Of a DNA stretch of 41,894 nucleotides, positions 8,595 to 33,167 are shown in pieces. Location of the stretch: contig CAZWPQ010000001.1 in assembly GCA_964636085.1 (NCBI GenBank), positions 137,437 to 179,330 on the forward strand. The letters run 5' to 3'. The first letter of the stretch is position 1, and every line of letters starts with the position of its first letter. The notes under the pieces are model-generated. The model searched no databases and had not been told where the DNA came from. It saw only the letters and a list, made by a program, of their open reading frames with translations. The translations under genes and the position numbers were made by a program. This stretch comes from an uncultured Nitrososphaerota archaeon (lineage in GTDB: Archaea; Asgardarchaeota; Njordarchaeia; Njordarchaeales; Panguiarchaeaceae).

Positions 8595-9767
8595 ATGTCT
8601 AGGCTTAAGGCGCCAAGACTTTCACTTAAAGACCTATTAGTCAGGATAAAGGATCTCGTTGAGATACAACTCGATCTTGCCTATACCTCCGTTATATATG
8701 AGGATAGAGAGGCCGCCCAGCAAGCAATAAAACTTGAGGATCAAATAACAGAATATTTATGTCATGCAATCTTACGCGCACTGATGGCGGGGAGAGATAT
8801 AGAACTTGCAGAGAAACTTTTGGCGTTAATCAGATTTGCTAGTTCTTTAGAGGATATTTCAGACGCTGCGGCAGATATAGCAAAATTAACTATTGAGAAT
8901 ATCTCACTAGGCGCATTTAAGGATCTACTTATGCACGCTGATGAAGTTACAATTAGGGTTAGTAACCTAAGAGAGCATATACGGGGAAAAACAATTGAAG
9001 AAATTGAAGACATCATTGGAATGCGAATTGTTGCGGTAAAACGAAGAAAAAAGTGGATACTAAATCCGCCTTCGGATCTTGCCATATGGAATGATGACGT
9101 ATTATACATTAGCGGTCCCGAAGAGCGTATAGAACAAGCATTATTCCTACTCTCGTTGGAGTCTGAAAAAAGAGAGGAATTAAGCATCTCCGAGCATATG
9201 AAAACGTTCTTTGATTTCCTAATTTCTATGAAGTATATCGCAGAAACTAGTCTAGCGTTAAGTTATTATGCCTTGTTAACTGGCGATATTTCGCTCGCGA
9301 GGGAAGTGGAGCATCTTGAACAATGGGTTGACCATATGCGAGATATCCTAGATGTCTATGCGCTCAAAGTCAGTAGGCATTTTAATGAAACAGAAAGTCT
9401 AAGAGGGTTCTTCAGATTGATTGATTCTACTGAGGAAATAACTGATGCCGCATACAGACTGGCCCAAATAGTTTTGAAAGGGATAGATGTGTCATCATTA
9501 TTTAGGATAATATTGGACGAGTCCGATGAAAAAATTATCTCCTATATCATAAACAACAAATCAAAACTTGTCGGAAAAACCATAGAAATGGTTAACCTAG
9601 AGAAGACTTATGGGCTCTTTCTAATGGGTATAAGAAGAGGAAAAACATGGTATTTTAGCCCAGAAGATACGATGAAACTCCTACCTGATGACGTCCTCAT
9701 AATAAGGGGAACACGAACCTCCATACAAAAGTTCTTGTCTGACTATCCCCCAACCAATAATGACTAG
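8595..9767 (+). CDS. Tandem (PhoU-like + TrkA-C)x2 regulatory protein
   Basis: Two repeats of DLAY...LE.I.DAA..IA, each followed by a TrkA-C domain (GKTI..G..IVA.RR..W..NP...L..DDVL.I.G). Confidence 0.85.
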   Translation: MSRLKAPRLSLKDLLVRIKDLVEIQLDLAYTSVIYEDREAAQQAIKLEDQITEYLCHAILRALMAGRDIELAEKLLALIRFASSLEDISDAAADIAKLTIENISLGAFKDLLMHADEVTIRVSNLREHIRGKTIEEIEDIIGMRIVAVKRRKKWILNPPSDLAIWNDDVLYISGPEERIEQALFLLSLESEKREELSISEHMKTFFDFLISMKYIAETSLALSYYALLTGDISLAREVEHLEQWVDHMRDILDVYALKVSRHFNETESLRGFFRLIDSTEEITDAAYRLAQIVLKGIDVSSLFRIILDESDEKIISYIINNKSKLVGKTIEMVNLEKTYGLFLMGIRRGKTWYFSPEDTMKLLPDDVLIIRGTRTSIQKFLSDYPPTNND

Positions 9768-15992: not shown

Positions 15993-16478
15993 CTAAGGAG
16001 CTACCTCGCTTATCTTCTTTGCCAAGAGATCCGAGTACATTCCCAAATCTCTCAGCACCACACCTAACCTAGCACCTGGCCTAGCTATAGCCGCAAGCGC
16101 ATGACCTTCACCGCACCTAGTTATACATAAGAAACCATTTGAGGTTCTAGCTATGACCTGCCTGACATGACCTAAGTTTAGACCTATACTCTCCCGCTCA
16201 GATGCTGCAAATAGTCCCCAGATATTAGCACTAGCAACTATTAAAAATTCCTCCGAGGCCGATTTTTCTTCCCTAGTTACATAATCAACTGGCATTCCTG
16301 CAGAATCAACTAGAAAACATGATATTAAATCTGGATTCTCGTTAACCAATTTCTCTAAGTGCGGATGAACAATAAGTTGCAGTTCCTCTGTAGGTCCTGC
16401 AGATATTTCCTTAAAGAACACAGCCCTAAGTGCCTCTAACTCCTCAGGACTTAATTCTTTTAACTCCTCATCAGACAT
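15993..16478 (-). CDS. Roadblock/LC7 (MglB-like) protein #2
   Basis: LVDSAGMPV...LGHVRQVIART.NG...LAAIARPGARLGVV; acidic N-terminal extension. Confidence 0.9.
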   Translation of the reverse strand: MSDEELKELSPEELEALRAVFFKEISAGPTEELQLIVHPHLEKLVNENPDLISCFLVDSAGMPVDYVTREEKSASEEFLIVASANIWGLFAASERESIGLNLGHVRQVIARTSNGFLCITRCGEGHALAAIARPGARLGVVLRDLGMYSDLLAKKISEVAP

Positions 16479-16828: not shown

Positions 16829-16919
16829 GCCCCGGTGGTGTAGACGGCCAAGCATTCCGGCCTTTCAACAGAGAGAAGCCAGCCGGGGATCGCGGGTTCA
16901 AATCCCGCCCGGGGCACCA
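16829..16919 (+). tRNA. tRNA-Glu(UUC), 13-nt intron at 37/38 (16868-16880), encoded CCA
   Basis: Cloverleaf with GCCCCGG/CCGGGGC acceptor, CCGGC-CT-TTC-A[intron]A-GCCGG anticodon arm, TTCAAAT loop. Confidence 0.93.
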
Positions 16920-18945: not shown

Positions 18946-20043
18946 ATGCCTGACTCTAGGCCTGGGAGACCATTAATTATATATTCCGATGAGTATCTTA
19001 AACTTAACTTCGGCGATCATCATCCCTTCCAACCAACAAGATTCAAGACAACAATAGAACTAGTTAAGAAATATCTAATCCACGAAACTATACCGCCAGT
19101 TCGACTCCAGCCTAGCATTCTTATAAAACTTAATGTTCACTCTAAGGACTACATCAATAAGGTAAGGCGTTGTTCGGAGTTAGTTATACCATACCTATCG
19201 GAATACTCTGCTGATACACCTTGTTTTCAAGAAATTCTAGACTGGGGTCTCACATATTGTGGAGGCGTTATTTTGGGTTGTGATCAGGTAATTAGTGGCG
19301 ACTATGAAGTCGTGTTTAATGTTGCGGGTGGGTTTCATCATGCGAAATATAATGAAGATGGAGGATTTTGTGTTTTTAACGATTGTGCCCTAGCATTGTC
19401 CTATTTGGTTAGTAAGGGATTGAGACCCATCTATATCGATATTGATGCCCATGCAGGAGACGGAACTTACCTCATACTATATGACAAACCCATACCTAAA
19501 ATATCTATCCACGAGGATCCCAGATTTCTTTATCCAGGAAGGGGATTCATACATGAAATGGGTGCCGGCGAGGGGTATGGCTACACCCTAAATATCCCAC
19601 TTCCACCGCATTCTGGCGATAATGACATACTCTCTGTGTTTAGGGATCTAGTATTGCCCGTAATCAATATATACTCGCCCAACGTAATAGTATTTCAATG
19701 TGGTGTCGATGGGTACTTTAGGGATCCCCTAACTCACTTAAGTTATACGCATAGATGCTATATAGAAATTGCAAAGTTACTTAGAAAACTTAAATTGCCC
19801 TTAGTTTTATGTCCTGGGGGAGGATATTCAAACGATGCCCCTCTCTTACACCTATTAATTATTGCATACCTATCATACCAAGAATCTCGCATTAGCGATA
19901 TAATTAAGTACCTCGATGAAAATACCCCCGCAGAGCTCTATAAAGCTTATAACAGCCATACTGACACGCTAATACAAAGAATTACTAACATGCATCCAAT
20001 ATTCAAAATAGTAGATTCGAAAAGCTTTAGGCAAAGAGTTTGA
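18946..20043 (+). CDS. Zn-dependent deacetylase (HDAC/AcuC family)
   Basis: HPFQP.R, GGFHHA, GFCVFND, DIDAHAGDG, YPG.G, GVD..DPL, GGGY. Confidence 0.95.
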   Translation: MPDSRPGRPLIIYSDEYLKLNFGDHHPFQPTRFKTTIELVKKYLIHETIPPVRLQPSILIKLNVHSKDYINKVRRCSELVIPYLSEYSADTPCFQEILDWGLTYCGGVILGCDQVISGDYEVVFNVAGGFHHAKYNEDGGFCVFNDCALALSYLVSKGLRPIYIDIDAHAGDGTYLILYDKPIPKISIHEDPRFLYPGRGFIHEMGAGEGYGYTLNIPLPPHSGDNDILSVFRDLVLPVINIYSPNVIVFQCGVDGYFRDPLTHLSYTHRCYIEIAKLLRKLKLPLVLCPGGGYSNDAPLLHLLIIAYLSYQESRISDIIKYLDENTPAELYKAYNSHTDTLIQRITNMHPIFKIVDSKSFRQRV

Positions 20044-20061
20044 CATAGTTCCCATTATCAC

Positions 20062-20685
20062 TTAGATTCCAAGTTTTCTCCGAGTCTCTCTCGCCAATAT
20101 TTCAACTTCTCTCTTATAAGTATCGGGGAAGACCCTAGCGAGAACCGCTAATCTTGTCGCTTCTTGAAATACTCTTTTGACACCTAATCCCTCTATAGCA
20201 ACTGTCTTAAAGACAGGGAAGGGACCGTCAAGACGCAATACTCTAAGCATAACAACCTCAGGTAATGCATCGGGGAGATCTCTCTTATTTAATGCAACAA
20301 TTATTGGGATTTTCCCCCACTCGGAACCCAAAAAAGTCCTTAGTTCCTTTATACTATAGATGTTCTCCTCTAAGGCCTCTGGGTCCGAGTCGGCAACAAA
20401 GACGACGGCGTCTGCACCCTTAAGAATAATTCTGCGCTGTGTCTTATGCCTTCTTTGTCCTGGAACCGTATATAGATCGAAGAATATGTTTCCAGATGTC
20501 CCTAAGGGTACATAATCAAAATAAATAGTCCTCCCACTCTCGTCAGCAACCATCCTTAATTTTCCTTTTCTAAGACCCCTTATTTTGTTGTACAGCGCCT
20601 TCAACATTGTTGTTTTTCCGCCTAGTGATGGACCATAAAGTACGATTTTGAATCTATAGTGCCCGTACTTGTCCTTAAAAACCAT
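20062..20685 (-). CDS. Small GTPase, MglA type
   Basis: KIVLYGPSLGGKTT, GRTIYFD, YTVPGQ, LKGADAVVFVADS, NKRDL, TVA..G.GV. Confidence 0.92.
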   Translation of the reverse strand: MVFKDKYGHYRFKIVLYGPSLGGKTTMLKALYNKIRGLRKGKLRMVADESGRTIYFDYVPLGTSGNIFFDLYTVPGQRRHKTQRRIILKGADAVVFVADSDPEALEENIYSIKELRTFLGSEWGKIPIIVALNKRDLPDALPEVVMLRVLRLDGPFPVFKTVAIEGLGVKRVFQEATRLAVLARVFPDTYKREVEILARETRRKLGI

Positions 20686-20792
20686 GAAGTCCCACCAAAT
20701 TTCCTCGTATATGATAAAAACAACTCATAATAAAAAAATTACATTTAATTTGGGCTCTTGTTACAATAAAATTAAAAAAAGAGGATTTAGAT

Positions 20793-21956
20793 CTATAGCG
20801 TACGAAGAACAGAGTCTGGACCTACTTCTGACCACTCCTTCCTAGTAACCACTATTTTTCTGAAGGCAGGCAAGGATGCCAGGATCGAACCCCCTATGAA
20901 TACTCCATAGATGCGCTCCTCTGGGGCCTCAATTGCTACCTTATCCCTAGCACGCTCAGGCACTATTTCTTTCAGTTCTTTCTCCAGCCTTTCAGCAAAG
21001 TTTGGAATCATCGTATTACCTCCAGAAACAACAATATTTGAATACATCGCTGGTCTAACATCGATATCACATGCGAATATGGCATCCAATACTAACTCAT
21101 CTAATGGCTGTGCCTCTAGACCGATCAACATGGGCTTATACATAATCTCTGGAGCCATGAATCTTTCCTCTACGAGCTCGACTATTCTACCATCAGGAAG
21201 CTCATACGAGCCCGCAACCGCCTTAGGGATTTTCTTTGCCTTCTCTAGCTCAGCCTTATAATCTAGGGCAAAATAGCATAGCTTCTCCTTTATATCCCTT
21301 GCAATTTCCATCTCTGCGGAAGATGTGAAGTAGAGTCCACGCTTCGTCAATAATTTGGCTAAGTATCTAGTAACGTCTCTACCAGCTAAATTCAGACGCC
21401 TAACTGCGTGGGAAAGCAAGTAGCTTTCTTGTACTGGAACTATGTGTGTAACACCGTCTCCCGAGTCTATAACAAGTCCAGTAACACGACCAGCCGCGTA
21501 AAGGGACAGAATAGCCTGCGTTGCAACATAGATTCCTGGAACACCAAAGGTTTCAAACAATATTTCTGCCATTCTAATCCTATTGTCCTTTGGGCTTAAA
21601 GGAGCCTCTGTAACCAGAATGGCTTGATCCTGAGGATTGACTCGGAGCTCCTTATAGTATAGATGATAAATCAATTTTTCCCAAGCATCCCAATCTGCAA
21701 CTATTGCATGCTCCAGAGGCCAGACTAGCTGAAGAACTCCTCTCATGTGAACCGCGTCCCTACCGACATAATATTCTAGTGTCTCGGCTTCTGGCATTAC
21801 AACAGCATATTTTGGATAACCTACAACCGTTGGAAATACACTTCTCGGGTATTCGTCCCCCGCAAAGCCACATTTTGTGAACCCTGTTCCTAGGTCTGCT
21901 ATCACGGCGGGTCTTTCTAATTCGGGCATTTTATGGGGTGGAGTAGCACCTGCCAA
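20793..21956 (-). CDS. Actin (eukaryote-like, Asgard-type)
   Basis: DLGTGFTKCGFAGD.PRSVFP, TEAPL.PK.NR, DSGDGVTHIVPV, AGRD, DIKEKLCY, YELPDG, SGGNTM, GGSILASL; colinear with eukaryotic actin. Confidence 0.97.
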   Translation of the reverse strand: MAGATPPHKMPELERPAVIADLGTGFTKCGFAGDEYPRSVFPTVVGYPKYAVVMPEAETLEYYVGRDAVHMRGVLQLVWPLEHAIVADWDAWEKLIYHLYYKELRVNPQDQAILVTEAPLSPKDNRIRMAEILFETFGVPGIYVATQAILSLYAAGRVTGLVIDSGDGVTHIVPVQESYLLSHAVRRLNLAGRDVTRYLAKLLTKRGLYFTSSAEMEIARDIKEKLCYFALDYKAELEKAKKIPKAVAGSYELPDGRIVELVEERFMAPEIMYKPMLIGLEAQPLDELVLDAIFACDIDVRPAMYSNIVVSGGNTMIPNFAERLEKELKEIVPERARDKVAIEAPEERIYGVFIGGSILASLPAFRKIVVTRKEWSEVGPDSVLRTL

Positions 21957-22161
21957 TTTTCACACCTCTTGTTGGAAACCTCAATTCTAATTAAAATTTC
22001 GCAATATAATACTTAAATACTCCATTTATAAATGAGTTGATGCCAGAATAACCTGATTTTTGAAACAGTATATTCTTGCATTGCTTAGAAAAATTTTATT
22101 CTCAGTGCCAGTAGAATCTATATGTTTTGTGTTTGTACGACTCTACATGCTACTACCTTAG

Positions 22162-23847
22162 TTATATTCGCGCAATCGTTTTCCTTATTTCACTTGCTAT
22201 ATCTACCGTTTCCGCCATAATTATTACATTTTTTCCAATACGCCTTATCCTTATTAGCTTCCCCATATAATTTATTCTCTCATTTGTAGATTTGTCAAGT
22301 ACTTTTTCAACGACATCTACTGGTACATCATAACTCAATAGAATTTTTTTAAGAGGTGCAATATCCAAGATTGCCTCAAGGTTAAACGCAATCCTGAAAT
22401 TCTCCATTTTCCGTTTTATACCCTCTATGAGATCTCTAATTAATTCCCTTGGATGGGATTCAAGTTTTTTATCAAAGTCCTCTAATTGACTTAGGGTTAT
22501 GCCTGTTCCCTGTATGATTTGATAATATTCATCTTCTAGGATCTTCCTCTTGTTAGCCATTATTGAGGCGACTTCTTCCTTGACATATTCATATAATTGT
22601 TGAACTACTAGATCACCTCTTCCAAATTCGCCGTATGCTGAAGATTCAAGCCTTCTCAATGCATCCATATGCGATAATTTAGCTGCATTAAAGTTGGAGA
22701 GACTTGATAAACTCTCAAGAGGCTTTATTCCAAGAGCCCTACATGCTAAAAGCAGGGATTCCGCCCAAACACCTAGTTCACCATCAGTAATCCATTTTGT
22801 TTCTATCACTTCTCTTATAGTTTGTTTTATCAATACCCAAGGATTAGGAACTCGACTTTTAACTAACGGCTTTAATTCAAGTCTATGTGCCAATATATAA
22901 GGCGCGGCCCATGTAACGTCACTATAATCCACATAATCCCTCTTATGGAGCCATGCTCTGGCCCTCGCATATAGTAGTAATGCCAAATTTGCTCTTTCGT
23001 CTGGTGGTTCTTGGACAAAGCTACAGGGCTCATTTGAATATTCACACTCTGTGCACTTGAGGCGCATGTAACCAATTATGCCCCTCTTATATTTGCATAC
23101 TCTGAACATTGATACAATCATTAGACTAAAAATCCTAACGTCTTCAGGAATCTTCACATTGACTACGTCATCCCAAATTTCTAATAATTCTGCTATAGAA
23201 AGAACTCGAGGCATTGTTTTTACCAGATCAGGATAACTCTGAGTTTCTACTTCACTCGCTATTAGTGAATCGATAATTTTCTTAGAGCCGCTCAGATCTG
23301 GCAAATCTATATAGCATGACCCTAGGAACCTTGCCTTTAATGCTCTATCCATATCCCCTCTAAATGGATTCATATCGGCAAAGCATAAATACTCAGGCGT
23401 TCTAAAGATCTTGCCACCATATTCTAAATATCCCTCCTCTAGGAGACTAAGTAAAGCATCCTGTATACTCTTGGAGAACCTATTAATTTCATTGATGAAC
23501 TTTATCCTAGCCATAACTATTGGTCTAACAACTATTTCTTCCTCCCCTGTTGATAATAATTTCACAATGTTAGTGGAGATAAGCACCTTCTGCAATGTCT
23601 TTTCAGGAGCCCCAATTGCCATTCCAAATATCATACCAGAAGAATCCTTAGATAAACCCCTAGCTATAAGCCGTACAAGCGTAGATTTGCCCGCGCCTGG
23701 AAATCCTACTAACAGGACCTTATTATTTCTTATTAATATTGAAGTAATAATGAACTCCTTTAGCTCTTTATCGCTACATACCCATCTCCTGAACAGTTCT
23801 TTTTCTAATTCCTTAATCTTATCCCAGTATACAAATTTTGGTTGCAA
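22162..23847 (-). CDS. MoxR/RavA-like AAA+ ATPase
   Basis: GFPGAGKS, variant Walker B FINEINR, QDALLSLLEEG, MNP, D.ALKARF, LAHRL. Confidence 0.88.
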   Translation of the reverse strand: MQPKFVYWDKIKELEKELFRRWVCSDKELKEFIITSILIRNNKVLLVGFPGAGKSTLVRLIARGLSKDSSGMIFGMAIGAPEKTLQKVLISTNIVKLLSTGEEEIVVRPIVMARIKFINEINRFSKSIQDALLSLLEEGYLEYGGKIFRTPEYLCFADMNPFRGDMDRALKARFLGSCYIDLPDLSGSKKIIDSLIASEVETQSYPDLVKTMPRVLSIAELLEIWDDVVNVKIPEDVRIFSLMIVSMFRVCKYKRGIIGYMRLKCTECEYSNEPCSFVQEPPDERANLALLLYARARAWLHKRDYVDYSDVTWAAPYILAHRLELKPLVKSRVPNPWVLIKQTIREVIETKWITDGELGVWAESLLLACRALGIKPLESLSSLSNFNAAKLSHMDALRRLESSAYGEFGRGDLVVQQLYEYVKEEVASIMANKRKILEDEYYQIIQGTGITLSQLEDFDKKLESHPRELIRDLIEGIKRKMENFRIAFNLEAILDIAPLKKILLSYDVPVDVVEKVLDKSTNERINYMGKLIRIRRIGKNVIIMAETVDIASEIRKTIARI

Positions 23848-23900
23848 ATTTACTCCTCCCTAAATAACTTCAACCAAAGAACGAATAATTGTGTAAATAC

Positions 23901-25544
23901 TTATAAAATGTTGTCCCTTACCAACATAGCTATTCTCCCAATCATGTCTTCCATGGGTTCTTTTGGAGGTATCTTAATTATCGATATGCCAGTACTCTCT
24001 ATCGTATCTCTCGATCTGCTCCATATATTGTCCGTGATGGCAAACATTATCACTTTTATTCTACCACTCAGATCACTAAGTCTTTGCTGAACTATCGGGT
24101 AATTTATATCATATATCATTGTATCCGTTATTATGGCTAACAAAACCCTCTCCGACACCATTGAAATATGCTTCTCAATCGTATCAAATACAAATCTTAT
24201 GTTTGTGCCTCCAGCAGCATCCAAACGCAGTATTATCTCTTCTACTAAATCATAGTTTTGTGTTGGTTCTACCCCCCGCCATGCACCAGACGAAAAAGTT
24301 GTGAGCCCTATCGTTCTTTCGTATTTTTTAGCGACCTCTACCATTGCAACCCCTAACTCCACAGCTCTTTCTATGCTTTCCCCTTGCATTGAGCCACTTG
24401 TATCTATACATAATTCCAAATGCCCTATCCCTGCGGAAAATAGGGGGCCGCTTCTAGACTCATAGATGTTTTTAAGAGTAGATAGGTTAGGAATCACTAA
24501 CCCAAAATTCTCTGCAGAAATTTCAACATCCAAATCATCCTCATCGTCTCCTAAGTACCAATTGTCATACCCATACTTACTTCTGGTTAAACTTTTTTCC
24601 ATTAAAATTGTCTCTACAATAGATAGAAGTCTCCTTATACGAGCTCTTCTAACAGCTGCAAGATATCTTTTTTCTTCGAGCAACTTTTGTATCATTTCCC
24701 TTTGGTTAGAGTAGGCTGGTATTCTACCACCACTTTGCATTTGATCCAGCCTCCTAGCCAAGTTCTTTGCCAAGTCTTCATCCAACTCCGCGACGTATTC
24801 CATCTCCTCATGTGTAAGTTTTGCCTTTTTATACGACCTTGTAGATTCTAATCTATAGTCATCGCATGCTACTGGTACAATTATCCTCCTTAAATCTCTC
24901 TCGTGATAATCCCAAGGGTCAAAATTTTTGCACATTCGCCTTATCATTTCAAAGAAAAGTCTCGATTTCAAGTATATGGGTATTTTGGAGAAAAATAGAG
25001 CTTTCAATTTTTCGAGAGTTTCTGTATCTCCAACTTTTTTCCCGCAGATACAATAGTCTATGAAATCGCGGACGAACCTGCCTAACTTTGTCTTAGGCTT
25101 ATATCGATTAAGGACACATGCCAATGTCTCTTTTACCATCCATTTCCATTTCTTCTTTCTTAGTAATTCTAGCAACATATAAAACATCGAAAAAAGTGAT
25201 ACCATAAAACCATGGATTTTGGACTGACCAAAATCGCTAAAAACTTTTCTTGAAGCTATCCAAATCAATAATCTATTCAACTCAGTAGCGGGCATTATTG
25301 CATGAAAACTTAGGCCCTTCAGTAATAAGTATTTATCGAAACATGAAAGACGATCGATTGTTGGTATATCAGACATATATATTGTTCCCCACCGATCATA
25401 CCACGCCTCCCTCATATCACATATGATAACATCAAAACTTGGAAAAATCCCAAAGTCCTTAGCGAAATTTTTTAGTATCAACTCAAACTCATCACATCTT
25501 ATCCTACTGGAGTGCAGAACACACCGTATCGCCATTAATTTCAC
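23901..25544 (-). CDS. VWA-domain protein (MoxR partner)
   Basis: MIDAS motif DTSGS, GGTN, ITD in the C-terminal domain. Confidence 0.88.
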   Translation of the reverse strand: MKLMAIRCVLHSSRIRCDEFELILKNFAKDFGIFPSFDVIICDMREAWYDRWGTIYMSDIPTIDRLSCFDKYLLLKGLSFHAIMPATELNRLLIWIASRKVFSDFGQSKIHGFMVSLFSMFYMLLELLRKKKWKWMVKETLACVLNRYKPKTKLGRFVRDFIDYCICGKKVGDTETLEKLKALFFSKIPIYLKSRLFFEMIRRMCKNFDPWDYHERDLRRIIVPVACDDYRLESTRSYKKAKLTHEEMEYVAELDEDLAKNLARRLDQMQSGGRIPAYSNQREMIQKLLEEKRYLAAVRRARIRRLLSIVETILMEKSLTRSKYGYDNWYLGDDEDDLDVEISAENFGLVIPNLSTLKNIYESRSGPLFSAGIGHLELCIDTSGSMQGESIERAVELGVAMVEVAKKYERTIGLTTFSSGAWRGVEPTQNYDLVEEIILRLDAAGGTNIRFVFDTIEKHISMVSERVLLAIITDTMIYDINYPIVQQRLSDLSGRIKVIMFAITDNIWSRSRDTIESTGISIIKIPPKEPMEDMIGRIAMLVRDNIL

Positions 25545-25554
25545 TTAGTGTAAA

Positions 25555-26730
25555 TTATCTAACAGGTTTATCACTTATACCAACGGTATTGCCTATCCCT
25601 AAGATTATAACTTTCCCCCCCTCGGGCACCTCCTCGACGATTAGTCTTCTAATAATCTTGTATGCCTCGTCCACCGAGGATAAAAGCTCCTTCCTTAGAG
25701 GCGTCAAAGACTCCAGATAATTTTCTTTTATCGCAACGGCAAATAATGGTATCTTGTATTTTGCAGTCCATTTCTCTATTCTGAACTTTTCAGGCCCTGG
25801 ATCGCCTATGGCTGCACCTACACCAACGTCAACATGGCCTGGCTCCTCTGATTCTAATCTCAGGGCAGCATCAACAGTGATAACAGCATCAACATTCCCC
25901 TCAATTTTCTGTAATATCTTTTCAAGGAACCTCCCGGGTCGTCCTACTTCACTACCTGGCCCCACAGCTTTTACCGCCAAAATATAGCGCCCATTATACT
26001 CTATGGAGCTATAAGCAATCCTCATTTCCTCATCGACATCCACCACTTCTCCAAAAAACTTTTGAGCCACCATAGCACCTACAGAATCTCCTACAGGAGC
26101 CCCAACAACAAAACTCTTTATCGCATCATAAAAGCTTAGACATAATTCGCGGAAGAATGGAACCCAGAATTTAAGCTGAAAGAGGTAAAATATATTGTTT
26201 GTCCTAATACCAACTTTATAAAGGTGCACTGAGATTTTCCATAAATACCTTATAACTGCTGCTGCCTCTAAAGCACTCTCCAAATTTTTATTTACAAAAG
26301 AAGGCGCCTCAGGGAGAATCTTTAGAGATATCCCCTCAAGCCTTCTCCTTCTAACATCTATTAAATGCTCTAGTCTCTCTATAATGCCAGTTGGATCCAA
26401 TGTTACTGGGTATATTAGAAAACTATTTATGATTTCATCAATTCGTTCCATCATTTTTTTAAACTCATCAAGCGCCATTATCCTTTTAGCAATTGCATCT
26501 GGGTTCTCATCCGTCAGATCTTTCACTATATCCTTTCTATATTTTAATATCAAACCGACAAATAATCGTTTAGAGAGCTTCTCATAAATCGTTATCTCGT
26601 TTATGAAGGATCTAAGACTATACCTAAGCATTAATGCTTGTAGCTCATTTAGGAATAGTATAAATAGTATGAAGATTATCATCGATACTAAATAATCTAA
26701 ACTACCTTGCATTATGACCATTAGGTACAC
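25555..26730 (-). CDS. DUF1512 family membrane-anchored protein
   Basis: N-terminal TM, PVTLDPTGII.RL.H, PVGDSVG, VDAALRLE.E, GAAIG.PG.EK, GIGNTVGI. Confidence 0.85.
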   Translation of the reverse strand: MYLMVIMQGSLDYLVSMIIFILFILFLNELQALMLRYSLRSFINEITIYEKLSKRLFVGLILKYRKDIVKDLTDENPDAIAKRIMALDEFKKMMERIDEIINSFLIYPVTLDPTGIIERLEHLIDVRRRRLEGISLKILPEAPSFVNKNLESALEAAAVIRYLWKISVHLYKVGIRTNNIFYLFQLKFWVPFFRELCLSFYDAIKSFVVGAPVGDSVGAMVAQKFFGEVVDVDEEMRIAYSSIEYNGRYILAVKAVGPGSEVGRPGRFLEKILQKIEGNVDAVITVDAALRLESEEPGHVDVGVGAAIGDPGPEKFRIEKWTAKYKIPLFAVAIKENYLESLTPLRKELLSSVDEAYKIIRRLIVEEVPEGGKVIILGIGNTVGISDKPVR

Positions 26731-28227: not shown

Positions 28228-28794
28228 CTATATACCTCTTGACTTTCTCAACTTTATGCTTACCTGAAACTTTAAGGCTGTGTCTACCTTATAATAGACT
28301 ATATCGCCATCTTGATCGACTATAGCTAACACGAGATCTTTATCATCCCGCTTGGCCATTTCTAATGCAGTACTTAATGTTTCTATCCCTATGCTTTTTT
28401 CTGCATGAACGACCATAAGATACCTCCTTGAAGTTTCAACACTCACATCTGCACCTCTGTCGTATACCTCAAAAACTATGGGGCTAGGGCCTGACACTTT
28501 TATGGGAAAGCCTCTCTCACGTAGGTCTAAATATGTTATGAACTTTGTCATAAATTCCTTATCTTTTGTACATTCTGCATATATAATCTCCTCTAGATCT
28601 AACCTCGTGTGAGATTCATCGACCCGCCTTTTCAATATTAGATAGCTTACCTCAAGAGGATGCAACCTAATAATCTCTCCCTCCTCTTTCCCCATTCCCT
28701 CCGCGATAAGTAATCTCCACTTTGGATTTTCCCGTTTGTTTAGTACATAACACCCATTCTTGATGTTTATCTTGAATTTACCCACACATATCAC
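28228..28794 (-). CDS. tRNA-splicing endonuclease, structural (non-catalytic) subunit
   Basis: LHPLEVSYL, Y.DLRERG, LVLAIVD..GDIVYY; the catalytic KYG..F/His motifs are absent. Confidence 0.85.
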   Translation of the reverse strand: MICVGKFKINIKNGCYVLNKRENPKWRLLIAEGMGKEEGEIIRLHPLEVSYLILKRRVDESHTRLDLEEIIYAECTKDKEFMTKFITYLDLRERGFPIKVSGPSPIVFEVYDRGADVSVETSRRYLMVVHAEKSIGIETLSTALEMAKRDDKDLVLAIVDQDGDIVYYKVDTALKFQVSIKLRKSRGI

Positions 28795-31501: not shown

Positions 31502-31522
31502 CACATTTCATATTGAAATGTG
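31502..31522. repeat. Perfect inverted repeat CACATTTCA-TAT-TGAAATGTG at the integrase start
   Basis: 9-bp arms read directly from the sequence. Confidence 0.7.
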
Positions 31523-32488
31523 ACGATGATCTATATGGATGACATCAAGCTTTTAAGATGCGAAAGCGTCGATGACGTATTAAGATGTATTAAAGAGGCA
31601 GACATACTCAGAGAGCAAAAAGATGCAATACTACTATTTATAAATGAACTTAGGATGAAGGGCTTCAGCCCCTTTCGCTTGATGTCTTATGCCTTTACAT
31701 TACTCGAACTCGCACGTTTTTCGAACAAGAGTTTCCATGAACTCCGCGATTTAGACCTCAGGAGTTATGTCTCTTACCTTCTGACCGATAAGAACAATAG
31801 GCATAGTACAATTAAGGAAAAAATGATGAGAATACGTGTTTTTCTCCGTTGGCTACTTAATTTGCCACCCAGAGTAACACCAGAGTCTTTACGTTGGTTC
31901 TTCACAATTAAACCAAAATCAACAAAGGGAAATAAGGCCCTAAAAATCCTAGAGAAGCTAATATCATATGACGAATATCTGCGACTACTAAATTTTGCAA
32001 ATAATCCTAGAGATAAAGCCCTGCTACAATTTATGTACGAAAGTGGCGCCCGAATCCTAGAGATTCTGAAGGTTAAAATTAAGGATCTGCATCTTGACGA
32101 TAGATATGCCATAGTAGGTGAAGGAAAGAGGCTCGTACCCCTCGCCAACTTTGACCATATCAAGAATTGGCTGGAGATTCATCCCAAGAAGGATGACCCC
32201 AACGCCTACATATTCTGCAACCTGAGAGACCCATCAAAACCACTAAGTTATCCCGCAGTACGTAGATTATTGACCAGATTATGCAAAAAGGCCAAAATAA
32301 GTAGAAAAATTACACCACATATGTTCCGGCATTCAAGAGCAACCCTGCTTGCAAAGCACGGTGTATCGCCATACGCAATGAACCAAGTTATGGGCTGGTC
32401 ATCAAGTACAAGAATGTGGCAAGTATATCTCCATATAACCCAGAGAGATGCTCTAGATGAGGTACTGAAGAAGATAGGGGCGAGGTAG
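31520..32488 (+). CDS. Tyrosine recombinase/integrase (Xer-like)
   Basis: YESGAR..E, TPHMFRHSRAT, MGW, C-terminal catalytic Tyr (VYLH). Confidence 0.93.
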   Translation: MTMIYMDDIKLLRCESVDDVLRCIKEADILREQKDAILLFINELRMKGFSPFRLMSYAFTLLELARFSNKSFHELRDLDLRSYVSYLLTDKNNRHSTIKEKMMRIRVFLRWLLNLPPRVTPESLRWFFTIKPKSTKGNKALKILEKLISYDEYLRLLNFANNPRDKALLQFMYESGARILEILKVKIKDLHLDDRYAIVGEGKRLVPLANFDHIKNWLEIHPKKDDPNAYIFCNLRDPSKPLSYPAVRRLLTRLCKKAKISRKITPHMFRHSRATLLAKHGVSPYAMNQVMGWSSSTRMWQVYLHITQRDALDEVLKKIGAR

Positions 32489-32505: not shown

Positions 32506-32967
32506 TTATTGTATTCCAATGGGAGCAACTTCTTTCACTAATTCTTCTCTCATAAGCTTCATTTGTGCTTCTTCGAGCTTCGACAATAGATCATTTATGT
32601 ATGGGATATAACTCTTCACAATAGCTCTAACTGTACCAAGCAATGCTGGCTTTCTCACTTTAATTGCCATTGATGCCTTCTCTAATGGAACCAGCACAAA
32701 TATGTGGTCTCGCGTCTCTAGCAGTACCACCTCCTCGTTTTGGTGAGCTATTTTTAGTTCATCTAGAATAACTTTTAGGCCCTCTCCAATACTCCCGAGC
32801 AATGCGGATAGATCAGATACGGTGCTTTCGTCTATTTTTTCTGGACTATAATAGGATATCGGATGGCCTTCCGAGGTACTAATAATCACTATATCCACGC
32901 TTCCTATCTTAATGCTTATCTCTCTTAGGATCCTCTCTATCCTATCAAATATTTCCTCAACCGACAT
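32506..32967 (-). CDS. Roadblock/LC7 (MglB-like) protein #3
   Basis: ISTSEGHPI, LSAL, VLLET, KPALLG; C-terminal helical extension. Confidence 0.88.
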   Translation of the reverse strand: MSVEEIFDRIERILREISIKIGSVDIVIISTSEGHPISYYSPEKIDESTVSDLSALLGSIGEGLKVILDELKIAHQNEEVVLLETRDHIFVLVPLEKASMAIKVRKPALLGTVRAIVKSYIPYINDLLSKLEEAQMKLMREELVKEVAPIGIQ

Positions 32968-33084: not shown

Positions 33085-33167
33085 TGGGCCGGGGCGGACT
33101 CGAACCGCCGACCTTCCCGTCTCCCATCCATGTGAGCGGGACGCCATAGCCACTAGGCCACCGGCCC
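33085..33167 (-). tRNA. tRNA-Val(CAC), 10-nt intron at 37/38 (33121-33130), no encoded CCA
   Basis: GGGCCGG/CCGGCCC acceptor; TCCCG-CT-CAC-A[TGGATGGGAG]A-CGGGA. Confidence 0.9.

Follow-up and report, generated by a model that had tools for sequence, protein, structure and literature searches.

Actin and MglA-Type GTPase Genes as Neighbors in One Genus of Njordarchaeales, With Roadblock Proteins as the Likelier MglA Partners

Introduction

Does an actin gene lying directly upstream of a gene for an MglA-type GTPase mark a functional module, or are the two genes neighbors by descent? The locus that raises this question lies in a 41,894-nucleotide stretch of DNA from an uncultured archaeon of the Njordarchaeales (hereafter the window). 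The way in which actin came under the control of small GTPases is unsettled in accounts of how the eukaryotic cell arose, and a true module of MglA and actin in an Asgard archaeon would give a direct, testable handle on it. An earlier note, made from the sequence of the window, proposed such a module. Myxococcus supplies a bacterial precedent, as GTP-bound MglA binds the actin homologue MreB there. Both families, Asgard actin and MglA, are already known in Asgard archaea. The locus comprises:

20793..21956, minus strand: eukaryote-type (Lokiactin-like) actin, 387 aa, TTG start
20686..20792: spacer of 107 bp
20062..20685, minus strand: MglA-family small GTPase, 207 aa, ATG start

The open reading frames bear out the adjacency, shared orientation and 107-bp distance that the earlier note had described. 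Below, G000 denotes the metagenome-assembled genome that contains the window, and G001 to G004 the other species genomes of its genus.

A Eukaryote-Type Actin and an MglA-Family GTPase

The actin matches the Pfam actin family (PF00022) along its full length (residues 14-385, 367 bits, E 1.4e-109). A search of the PDB returned "HC1 actin" (9wc4) at E 1e-128 and eukaryotic actins at E ~1e-124 to 1e-126, while scores against models of other families fell far below their cut-offs (32 of 630 bits for crenactin, 40 of 400 for MamK and 45 of 530 for BeeR). By these sequence matches the protein is nearer eukaryotic actin than any of crenactin, MreB and MamK. Its nucleotide-binding motifs (phosphate-1 DxGTG, phosphate-2 DSGDG and the adenosine GG) are intact, and the ATP-site residues D21, G23-G25 (T24 included), D164, G166-G168 (D167 included) and G312-G313 are invariant among 36 Asgard actins, this one included. 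It is the one actin found in G000, which is 83% complete.

The neighboring protein carries the motifs of a small GTPase, including a P-loop GPSLGGKT (residues 18-25), R52 within GRTIYFD, a switch II of T73-V-P-G76-Q77 and NKRD (133-136). Residues G23, K24, T25, R52, T53, T73, G76, Q77, N133, K134 and D136 do not vary among 45 family members, so that the MglA-specific arginine and the TVPGQ motif pointed out in the earlier note are present and conserved. R52 aligns with the RT of Thermus MglA that forms the intrinsic arginine finger in switch I, and TVPGQ aligns with TVPGQ of Thermus and Myxococcus MglA, with threonine in place of the canonical G3 aspartate (DxxGQ). The role of Arg53 as the intrinsic arginine finger of Thermus and Myxococcus MglA is described by PMC10933270, which cites Miertzschke (2011). 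The protein is 46% identical to Thermus MglA, which is also its best match in the PDB (3t12, E 5e-42); Myxococcus MglA follows at E ~6e-34, and the best non-MglA match (Arf-like) reaches 1.4e-8. The GTPase is thus placed, on sequence grounds, nearer MglA than any other Ras-superfamily group, and Pfam and PDB matches together confirm the identities that the earlier note had assigned to both genes. Its family has more than 7,000 members at E<=1e-20, with source names that include "gliding-motility protein MglA", and it clusters with MglA-like proteins of the Jord, Frey, Thor, Heimdall and Loki lineages at 43-52% identity. G000 also encodes a recent paralog (84% identity) and has 17 Arf-profile small-GTPase loci in all.

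Transcription Signals and the Question of an Operon

The arrangement in G000 invites the reading that actin and MglA form a bicistronic operon, with read-through of a weak T-tract coupling their dosage. The two genes are on one strand and 107 bp apart, and they share a strand likewise in G001 and G004 with spacers of 131-134 bp. The signals around the pair are as follows:

22025..22032, minus strand: TTTATAAA, a TATA-box-like element and putative promoter ~69 nt upstream of the actin start, kept in 5/5 genus genomes
21963..21968, minus strand: Shine-Dalgarno-like GAGGTG, 6 nt ahead of the actin TTG; G002, G003 and G004 keep GGAGGTG or GAGGTG
20774..20780, minus strand: T7 tract resembling an archaeal oligo-T terminator, 13 nt past the actin stop, a putative site of termination
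20728..20738, minus strand: AT-rich TTTTTTTATTA element upstream of MglA, a candidate promoter
20692..20696, minus strand: Shine-Dalgarno-like GGTGG, 6 nt before the MglA ATG

In each of the five genus genomes a T-run of at least five comes after the actin stop, GGTG stands 6-8 nt upstream of the MglA start in 6/6 genus copies, and a motif resembling the AT-rich element, TTTTTTAT..GAGT, lies ahead of the inverted MglA of G002 and G003. The Shine-Dalgarno site and AT-rich element of MglA thus move along with the gene upon inversion. Against an operon stand the T7 tract past the actin stop, MglA's own AT-rich element and Shine-Dalgarno site, and the convergent orientation of the two genes in the nearest relatives, G002 and G003, which excludes an operon in those genomes. 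We consider co-transcription in G000 highly improbable. Actin and MglA are instead inferred from these signals to be transcribed separately, and the suggestion in the earlier note that a T-rich tract may uncouple the two genes is strengthened by the recurrence of T-runs across the genus and by the signals that MglA carries of its own. A search of Rfam gave no match to an RNA element in the spacer or its surroundings.

Upstream of actin, Pfam matches identify three further genes on the same strand:

22162-23847, minus strand: MoxR-like AAA+ gene
23901-25544, minus strand: VWA gene
25555-26730, minus strand: DUF1512 gene

By gene order, these three are members of a genus-wide syntenic block, outside any actin/MglA unit.

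Adjacency Within the Genus

Actin and MglA are adjacent in all five species genomes of the genus (G000-G004), and also on extra metagenome contigs of the G004 type, in four different arrangements. The pair is in tandem in G000 and G001. It is inverted as a 1.9-kb unit in G004. In G003 the MglA coding sequence alone is inverted, which leaves it convergent with actin at a distance of 88 bp and places the breakpoint inside the spacer, and in G002 the gene order has changed and the two genes are again convergent. With four arrangements in a single genus, co-transcription of actin and MglA is not conserved. Inverted repeats were considered as the cause of these inversions, and the region ~19800-22400 contained just short, chance-level matches.

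A second reading does away with the operon and holds that MglA was captured beside the single actin, that MglA-GTP regulates actin-based polarity or protrusions directly or via an adaptor, and that proximity itself was selected, for example through shared local regulation. The pair is contiguous in every genus member examined, although rearrangements have struck both outer junctions and the inner spacer, and such persistence through at least three local rearrangements might be a sign that proximity was selected. The genomes have moreover diverged considerably, with coding-DNA identity of 72-80% (20-28% divergence) against protein identity of 82-97%, so that actin and MglA are both, by these values, under strong purifying selection. 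However, one- and two-gene inversions leave neighbors adjacent by construction, and the breakpoint in G003 lies inside the spacer between the two genes. The surrounding genes, which are unrelated and include housekeeping genes, are equally syntenic, forming a block of ~13 kb across the genus (thermosome - Roadblock - methyltransferase - (OB) - (HDAC) - MglA/actin - MoxR - VWA - DUF1512 - FEN1). Plainly unrelated genes thus keep their adjacencies at least as well as actin and MglA do.

Adjacency Outside the Genus

The adjacency was not seen beyond the genus. It is absent from the other three families of Njordarchaeales, where MglA orthologs (63-75% identity) adjoin PCNA, rpL11, L7Ae, S28e, L24e, UPF0147 or rpL2, and it was not seen in the other 36 of 40 relatives searched, some of which yielded only one or neither of the two genes. 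In closed genomes, 21 kb to 1.5 Mb separate actin from the nearest MglA-like gene. A wider survey by tblastn (E<1e-5), covering up to 10 kb around Asgard actin loci, turned up MglA-like genes at none of 77 further loci; 55 of the 80 loci had at least 3 kb on both sides. The synteny comparison across Asgard genomes that the earlier note had suggested is thus negative beyond one genus. The note had also held that an adjacency unique to this genome, together with a lack of interaction and of GAP stimulation, would refute its proposal; the pair is not unique to G000, being present in all five genus genomes, but it is confined to that genus.

How readily might such a pair arise by chance? With ~2,400 genes assumed, 17 GTPase loci and one actin, a rough estimate puts the chance that some small GTPase abuts actin at ~1-2%, which is not negligible across many scanned windows. 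Together, these observations point to the actin-MglA neighborhood as a lineage-specific accident of gene order.

Is MglA Linked to Actin?

A biochemical observation in L. ossiferum also bears on coupling. Co-immunoprecipitation with Lokiactin enriched an "ARF GTPase" there (PMC13716822; bioRxiv 10.1101/2025.11.30.690169), and the co-precipitated small GTPase (UYP48373.1; GNAMCCOK_04696) has a listed mass of 30.4 kDa. In the closed 6.0-Mb genome that we presume to be that of L. ossiferum (G180), the MglA ortholog occupies a 213-aa frame and lies 1.48 Mb from actin. Given the mass of the co-precipitated protein and the size and position of the ortholog in this presumed genome, the GTPase that associates with Lokiactin is probably a different one from MglA. 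A prediction of the complex of actin, MglA and GTP from family alignments returned a score of 0.00, which amounts to "no answer" and speaks neither for nor against binding. Weighing the precedent of MglA and MreB in Myxococcus, the persistence of the pair and the selection on both proteins against its restriction to one genus, we regard selected, functional proximity as unlikely.

A broader version of the idea takes in the second MglA of G000. Myxococcus has both an MglA-MreB and a SofG-bactofilin link, in which small GTPases of the MglA type act on cytoskeletal polymers, and in G000 one MglA paralog lies directly downstream of the actin gene and the other directly downstream of a bactofilin gene. 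MglA might have been recruited beside the sole actin and, in its GTP form, guide Lokiactin-type filaments, either directly or through a Roadblock adaptor, with the bactofilin-side paralog doing likewise for the other polymer. If true, such steering would make MglA a forerunner in prokaryotes, or a parallel, of the control of actin by small GTPases. We judge the idea quite unlikely. The two adjacencies of G000 are not conserved: actin-MglA occurs in one genus only and bactofilin-MglA in G000 only. Bactofilin and MglA were rejected as a conserved pair, as bactofilin turned up in none of the other genus members and lay near no MglA-like gene in 40 relatives; nor was bactofilin found on the sole other MglA2-type contig.

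Roadblock Proteins as Candidate Partners

Gene order elsewhere suggests a different partner. MglA is flanked by Roadblock genes in Jord and Frey genomes (Robl-Robl-MglA-Robl), follows one in Thor genomes (Robl-MglA) and follows MglB in Thermus (MglB-MglA). By these gene orders, it is Roadblock, not actin, with which Asgard MglA has a conserved genomic association. The window encodes two candidates:

15993..16478, minus strand: Roadblock/LC7-fold protein of 161 aa (Robl161), 3.6 kb from MglA and within the genus-conserved block
32506..32967, minus strand: divergent Roadblock-fold protein of 153 aa (Robl153), 11.8 kb from MglA

Robl161 scores slightly below the Pfam Robl_LC7 cut-off (21.4 bits, cut-off 23) and matches Roadblock proteins in the PDB at E 7e-6 to 3e-4. 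Its AF2 model (pLDDT 64) matches MK-D1 Roadblock3 and MglB in Foldseek at E ~1e-6 to 1e-7. An HMM of those Roadblock genes that immediately precede MglA in Thor, Jord and Frey genomes has Robl161 as its sole match in G000 (E 1.5e-4). A profile comparison of its family with Thermus MglB (hhalign) was not significant (probability 0.6%), and its assignment relies instead on the fold match and the HMM. Robl153 had no match in a Pfam search. It is similar to the Roadblock gene that follows MglA in Jord- and Freyarchaeia (HMM E 1e-6), and its AF2 model (pLDDT 88) aligns in Foldseek with MK-D1 Roadblock3 (TM 0.86) and with Myxococcus and Thermus MglB (TM 0.77-0.84, rmsd 2.0-2.9 A). Robl161 and Robl153 are therefore likelier MglA partners than actin, and by analogy with MglB may act as its GAPs.

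Discussion

We favor, with a probability of roughly 0.78, the explanation that actin and MglA are independently transcribed genes that are neighbors by descent in one genus of Njordarchaeales, and that Roadblock-fold dimers are most likely the off-switch of MglA. The actin is the single Lokiactin-type cytoskeletal actin found in the genome, and the GTPase is a group-1-type MglA nucleotide switch that would use its own residues, Arg52 and Gln77, to hydrolyze GTP. To judge by MglA/MglB of Thermus and Myxococcus, and by how the genes are ordered in other Asgard archaea, this switch is most likely turned off by Roadblock-fold dimers, for which Robl161 (15993-16478) and Robl153 (32506-32967), dispersed in the window, would be the likeliest candidates. 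We infer that MglA has no dedicated link to actin. A functional link is biologically plausible, because Myxococcus MglA binds MreB and a small GTPase co-precipitates with Lokiactin, but the locus offers little evidence for one. The earlier note's proposal of a module coupling MglA to actin finds no support here, in that the adjacency belongs to one genus, its orientation varies even there, and the conserved partner is Roadblock. The evolutionarily conserved partnership of Asgard MglA would accordingly be with Roadblock, as in bacteria, and bench work is best focused on MglA and the two Roadblock proteins of the window. One compact actin and one compact MglA nonetheless make a cheap, well-defined pair for a direct binding test.

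Comparison With Known Systems

Like Lokiactin and other Asgard actins, the actin is full-length and eukaryote-type, with 52-57% identity to other Asgard actins and similar closeness to eukaryotic actin. It differs from them as the Njordarchaeales version, with 70-75% identity inside the order, and in having an MglA gene as its neighbor in this genus only. Lokiactin and Asgard actin have profilin and gelsolin regulators (Akil and Robinson, 2018, via PMC10933270; PMC13716822), and neither a profilin nor a gelsolin gene adjoins actin here.

Asgard MglA-group GTPases have been divided into MglA1 and MglA2-5 groups (Klinger, 2016; Vargova et al., bioRxiv 10.1101/2024.02.28.582541) and described as "MglA bacterial-like GTPases" (Tran et al., 2024, PMC10933270), and the GTPase at 20062..20685 belongs to the same family. 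Whereas MglA sits amid Roadblock genes in genomes of the Jord, Frey and Thor lineages, this cluster is dispersed in Njordarchaeales, one genus of which has MglA beside actin.

With Thermus and Myxococcus MglA (PDB 3t12, 3t1q, 6izw, 6h5b) the GTPase shares the intrinsic arginine R52, TVPGQ, the catalytic Gln77 and NKRD, although its beta2-beta3 hairpin is 4 residues shorter. Unlike Thermus and Myxococcus, the window has no mglB-mglA operon, its Roadblock genes lying 3.6 and 11.8 kb from MglA, and the host, in contrast to those bacteria, is an archaeon with a true actin. In common with the MglA/MglB system, the window that encodes the GTPase also has genes for Roadblock-fold proteins whose C-terminal helix is MglB-like.

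An actin gene beside an MglA-type GTPase gene

An earlier note interpreted a neighboring actin gene and MglA-type GTPase gene as a candidate actin-coupled polarity module. Both open reading frames (ORFs) lie where it placed them and are co-oriented, with the GTPase gene downstream of actin across a 107-bp spacer:

20793..21956, minus strand: actin, ORF of 387 aa with a TTG start
20062..20685, minus strand: small GTPase (MglA), ORF of 207 aa

The actin matches Pfam Actin over its full length (367 bits), and the note's reading of it as eukaryote-like is confirmed. The closest solved structures are 'HC1 actin' (9wc4, E 1e-128), ordinary eukaryotic actins score at E about 1e-124 to 1e-126, and models of crenactin, MamK, and BeeR fall far under their cut-offs on this protein. 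The gene is single in the source assembly (2.41 Mb, 102 contigs, 83% complete); its most probable role is housekeeping, as a cytoskeletal actin of the Lokiactin type.

Among solved structures, Thermus MglA (E 5e-42, 46% identity) and Myxococcus MglA (about 6e-34) are the best matches of the GTPase, the nearest Arf-like protein reaching only 1e-8. As the note had read from the sequence, the MglA-specific arginine (GRTIYFD) and the TVPGQ motif are present, and 45 aligned relatives show no variation at R52, T53, T73, G76, Q77, the P-loop, or NKxD. The protein would thus work as a switch of the MglA type, with Arg52 and Gln77 as its own catalytic residues.

The source genome encodes 17 Arf-profile small-GTPase loci and two MglA paralogs. 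The second paralog, 84% identical, lies on contig C17 (locus L016, 7767-8390, minus strand) immediately downstream of a bactofilin gene (8636-9271, minus strand; PF04519, 48 bits), so both MglA copies trail a cytoskeletal-polymer gene. Bactofilin was not found in other genus members, near an MglA-like gene in any of 40 relatives, or on L106, the only other contig with an MglA resembling the second paralog, and a conserved bactofilin–MglA pair is therefore rejected.

Transcription signals

The following promoter and terminator assignments are predictions from sequence:

22032..22025, minus strand: TTTATAAA, about 69 nt before the actin start; kept in all five genus genomes; predicted role only
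minus strand, 6 nt before the actin TTG: GAGGTG; kept in all five genus genomes; predicted role only
20780..20774, minus strand: T7 tract, 13 nt past the actin stop
20738..20728, minus strand: AT-rich element upstream of MglA
minus strand, 6 nt before the MglA ATG: GGTGG

T-runs follow the actin stop in five of five genus genomes, and a TTTTTTAT..GAGT-like motif precedes MglA in the two species (G002 and G003) where its orientation is reversed. Separate signals for the two genes support uncoupled transcription, in line with the note's side remark that the T-rich tract may have this effect. A bicistronic operon of the two co-oriented genes in the source genome is accordingly very unlikely, and actin and MglA are probably transcribed separately.

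Gene order within and beyond the genus

Both proteins were searched against the whole genomes of 40 relatives (26 genera, 20 families), all MAGs, many of them fragmented, and non-independent as samples. Only the window's genus, in all five of its genomes, was seen to place actin and MglA side by side on one contig. Coding DNA within the genus is only 72-80% identical against 82-97% for proteins, indicating well-separated species. Comparison of the regions and DNA alignment (window 19900-22100 against L001-L004, the corresponding loci) revealed four arrangements in the five species.

Arrangement of actin and MglA in the source genome (G000) and the other four species (G001-G004)
G000, G001: MoxR> actin> MglA>
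G004 and four independent assemblies of its type: 1.9-kb actin+MglA block inverted whole relative to MoxR
G003: MglA CDS inverted alone, convergent with actin, 88 bp apart; breakpoints at CDS ends
G002: HDAC-actin-MglA order, actin and MglA convergent; MoxR/VWA gone from the site

In this alignment each inversion breakpoint is at most a few bases from a CDS end, and inverted repeats flanking the inversions are not detectable. Upstream of actin, genes for a MoxR-like AAA+ ATPase, a VWA-domain protein, and a DUF1512 protein are closely packed in one orientation (22162-26730, minus strand), a grouping kept in four of the five genomes, G002 being the exception. An HDAC-family gene (18946-20043, plus strand) converges on MglA (20062-20685), with stop codons 18 bp apart (20043-20062), and is missing from the MglA-side position in G001 and G004.

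The pair has remained contiguous across at least three rearrangements, and in Myxococcus MglA-type GTPases act on actin-like and bactofilin polymers. Both points favor a functional actin–MglA link whose proximity is maintained by selection. We consider this improbable; nothing in the locus requires such a link. Small inversions preserve the adjacency of neighbors by construction, and an entire block (thermosome - Roadblock - methyltransferase - (OB-fold) - (HDAC) - MglA/actin - MoxR - VWA - DUF1512 - FEN1) is syntenic across the genus, so the pair is conserved no better than plainly unrelated neighbor genes.

Elsewhere in the order, in its three other families, neither actin nor MglA is accompanied by any of the window's neighbor genes; the MglA ortholog there (63-75% identity) has PCNA and ribosomal-protein genes, or rpL2, as its neighbors. 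MglA-like genes (tblastn, E<1e-5) were also sought around the 80 best Asgard actin loci, in flanks reaching as far as 10 kb (both flanks of 3 kb or more in 55 of the 80). Three loci gave a match, all from the window's genus, and the other 77 gave none. The distance from actin to the nearest MglA-like gene in closed genomes is 21 kb to 1.5 Mb. Across the Asgard genomes and actin loci compared, the adjacency is thus confined to one genus.

Roadblock proteins as candidate partners of MglA

In Thermus, the MglA gene comes after mglB, a Roadblock gene. Jordarchaeales and Freyarchaeia encode a co-oriented Robl(100-105 aa)-Robl(154-155 aa)-MglA-Robl(121-123 aa) cluster (L107 2702-5041; L108 2262-5065; MglA identity about 47-51%), and a thorarchaeote encodes a co-oriented Robl(168 aa)-MglA pair (L109 3395-4615). 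Roadblock genes flank MglA in all four groups, so the conserved gene association of MglA in Asgard archaea, as in bacteria, is with Roadblock. Two Roadblock-fold ORFs lie in the window:

15993..16478, minus strand: 161 aa; sole source-genome match of the upstream-Roadblock HMM (E 1.5e-4), built from Roadblock genes directly upstream of MglA
32506..32967, minus strand: 153 aa; matched by the downstream-Roadblock HMM (E 1e-6)

The 161-aa ORF is slightly below the Pfam Robl_LC7 cut-off and matches solved Roadblock proteins in sequence; its predicted structure (pLDDT 64) resembles MK-D1 Roadblock3 and MglB. A Pfam search of the 153-aa ORF gave zero matches. Its confident model (pLDDT 88) has a predicted long C-terminal helix; superposition gives TM 0.86 with MK-D1 Roadblock3 and TM 0.77-0.84 (rmsd 2.0-2.9 Å) with MglB of Myxococcus and Thermus. 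The components of an MglA/Roadblock switch are therefore present within about 17 kb, but dispersed. Dimers of these Roadblock proteins would most likely switch MglA off.

The 153-aa ORF adjoins a phage-integrase/Xer-family recombinase gene (31520-32488, plus strand). The window also holds a tRNA-intron endonuclease gene (28228-28794), the 3' end of a 23S rRNA gene at its edge (41655-41894, minus strand), and three tRNA genes (16829-16916, plus; 33085-33167 and 41342-41432, minus) that, at 83-91 nt, exceed the standard length and are possibly intron-containing or class II.

With adjacency limited to one genus, orientation varying within it, and Roadblock as MglA's conserved partner, the polarity-module proposal is not borne out. 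We favor, at a probability of roughly 0.78, a housekeeping actin and an MglA switch with a nearby Roadblock off-switch, separately transcribed, whose adjacency would be an inherited gene-order feature of one genus. On this evidence the locus looks like an ordinary neighborhood rather than a candidate new module.

Comparison with known systems

Earlier work already recognizes both MglA-group GTPases (bioRxiv 10.1101/2024.02.28.582541; PMC10933270) and Lokiactin in Asgard archaea; we found no literature link between MglA and Asgard actin. Co-immunoprecipitation (co-IP) with Lokiactin in Lokiarchaeum ossiferum is reported to enrich 'an ARF GTPase' (Nature 2026, PMC13716822), listed in the preprint tables as GNAMCCOK_04696 / UYP48373.1, with 30.4 kDa in a column that we read as mass. 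MglA proteins match Pfam Arf, and some carry the annotation 'ADP-ribosylation factor-like', raising the question of whether this GTPase could be an MglA. The one 6.0-Mb single-contig genome of the relevant family (G180), which from its size we take to be L. ossiferum, encodes actin at 3.92 Mb (C1:3924777-3925883), an MglA ortholog 1.48 Mb away at 5.40 Mb (C1:5403378-5403914), and 80 Arf-profile GTPase loci. The ortholog's 213-aa frame is too small for 30.4 kDa, and the locus-tag number predicts a position closer to other genes, which match the Arf profile more strongly and have frames of 290-330 aa; the MglA ortholog is therefore unlikely to be the co-IP GTPase.

Both families being known in Asgard archaea, the genes described here are their Njordarchaeales version. 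Modestly new are the genus-specific actin–MglA neighborhood with repeated micro-inversions, the dispersed Roadblock partners, one invisible to Pfam, and the Roadblock-Roadblock-MglA-Roadblock cluster in Jord- and Freyarchaeia. The bactofilin–MglA pair of the source genome recalls SofG–BacP in Myxococcus.
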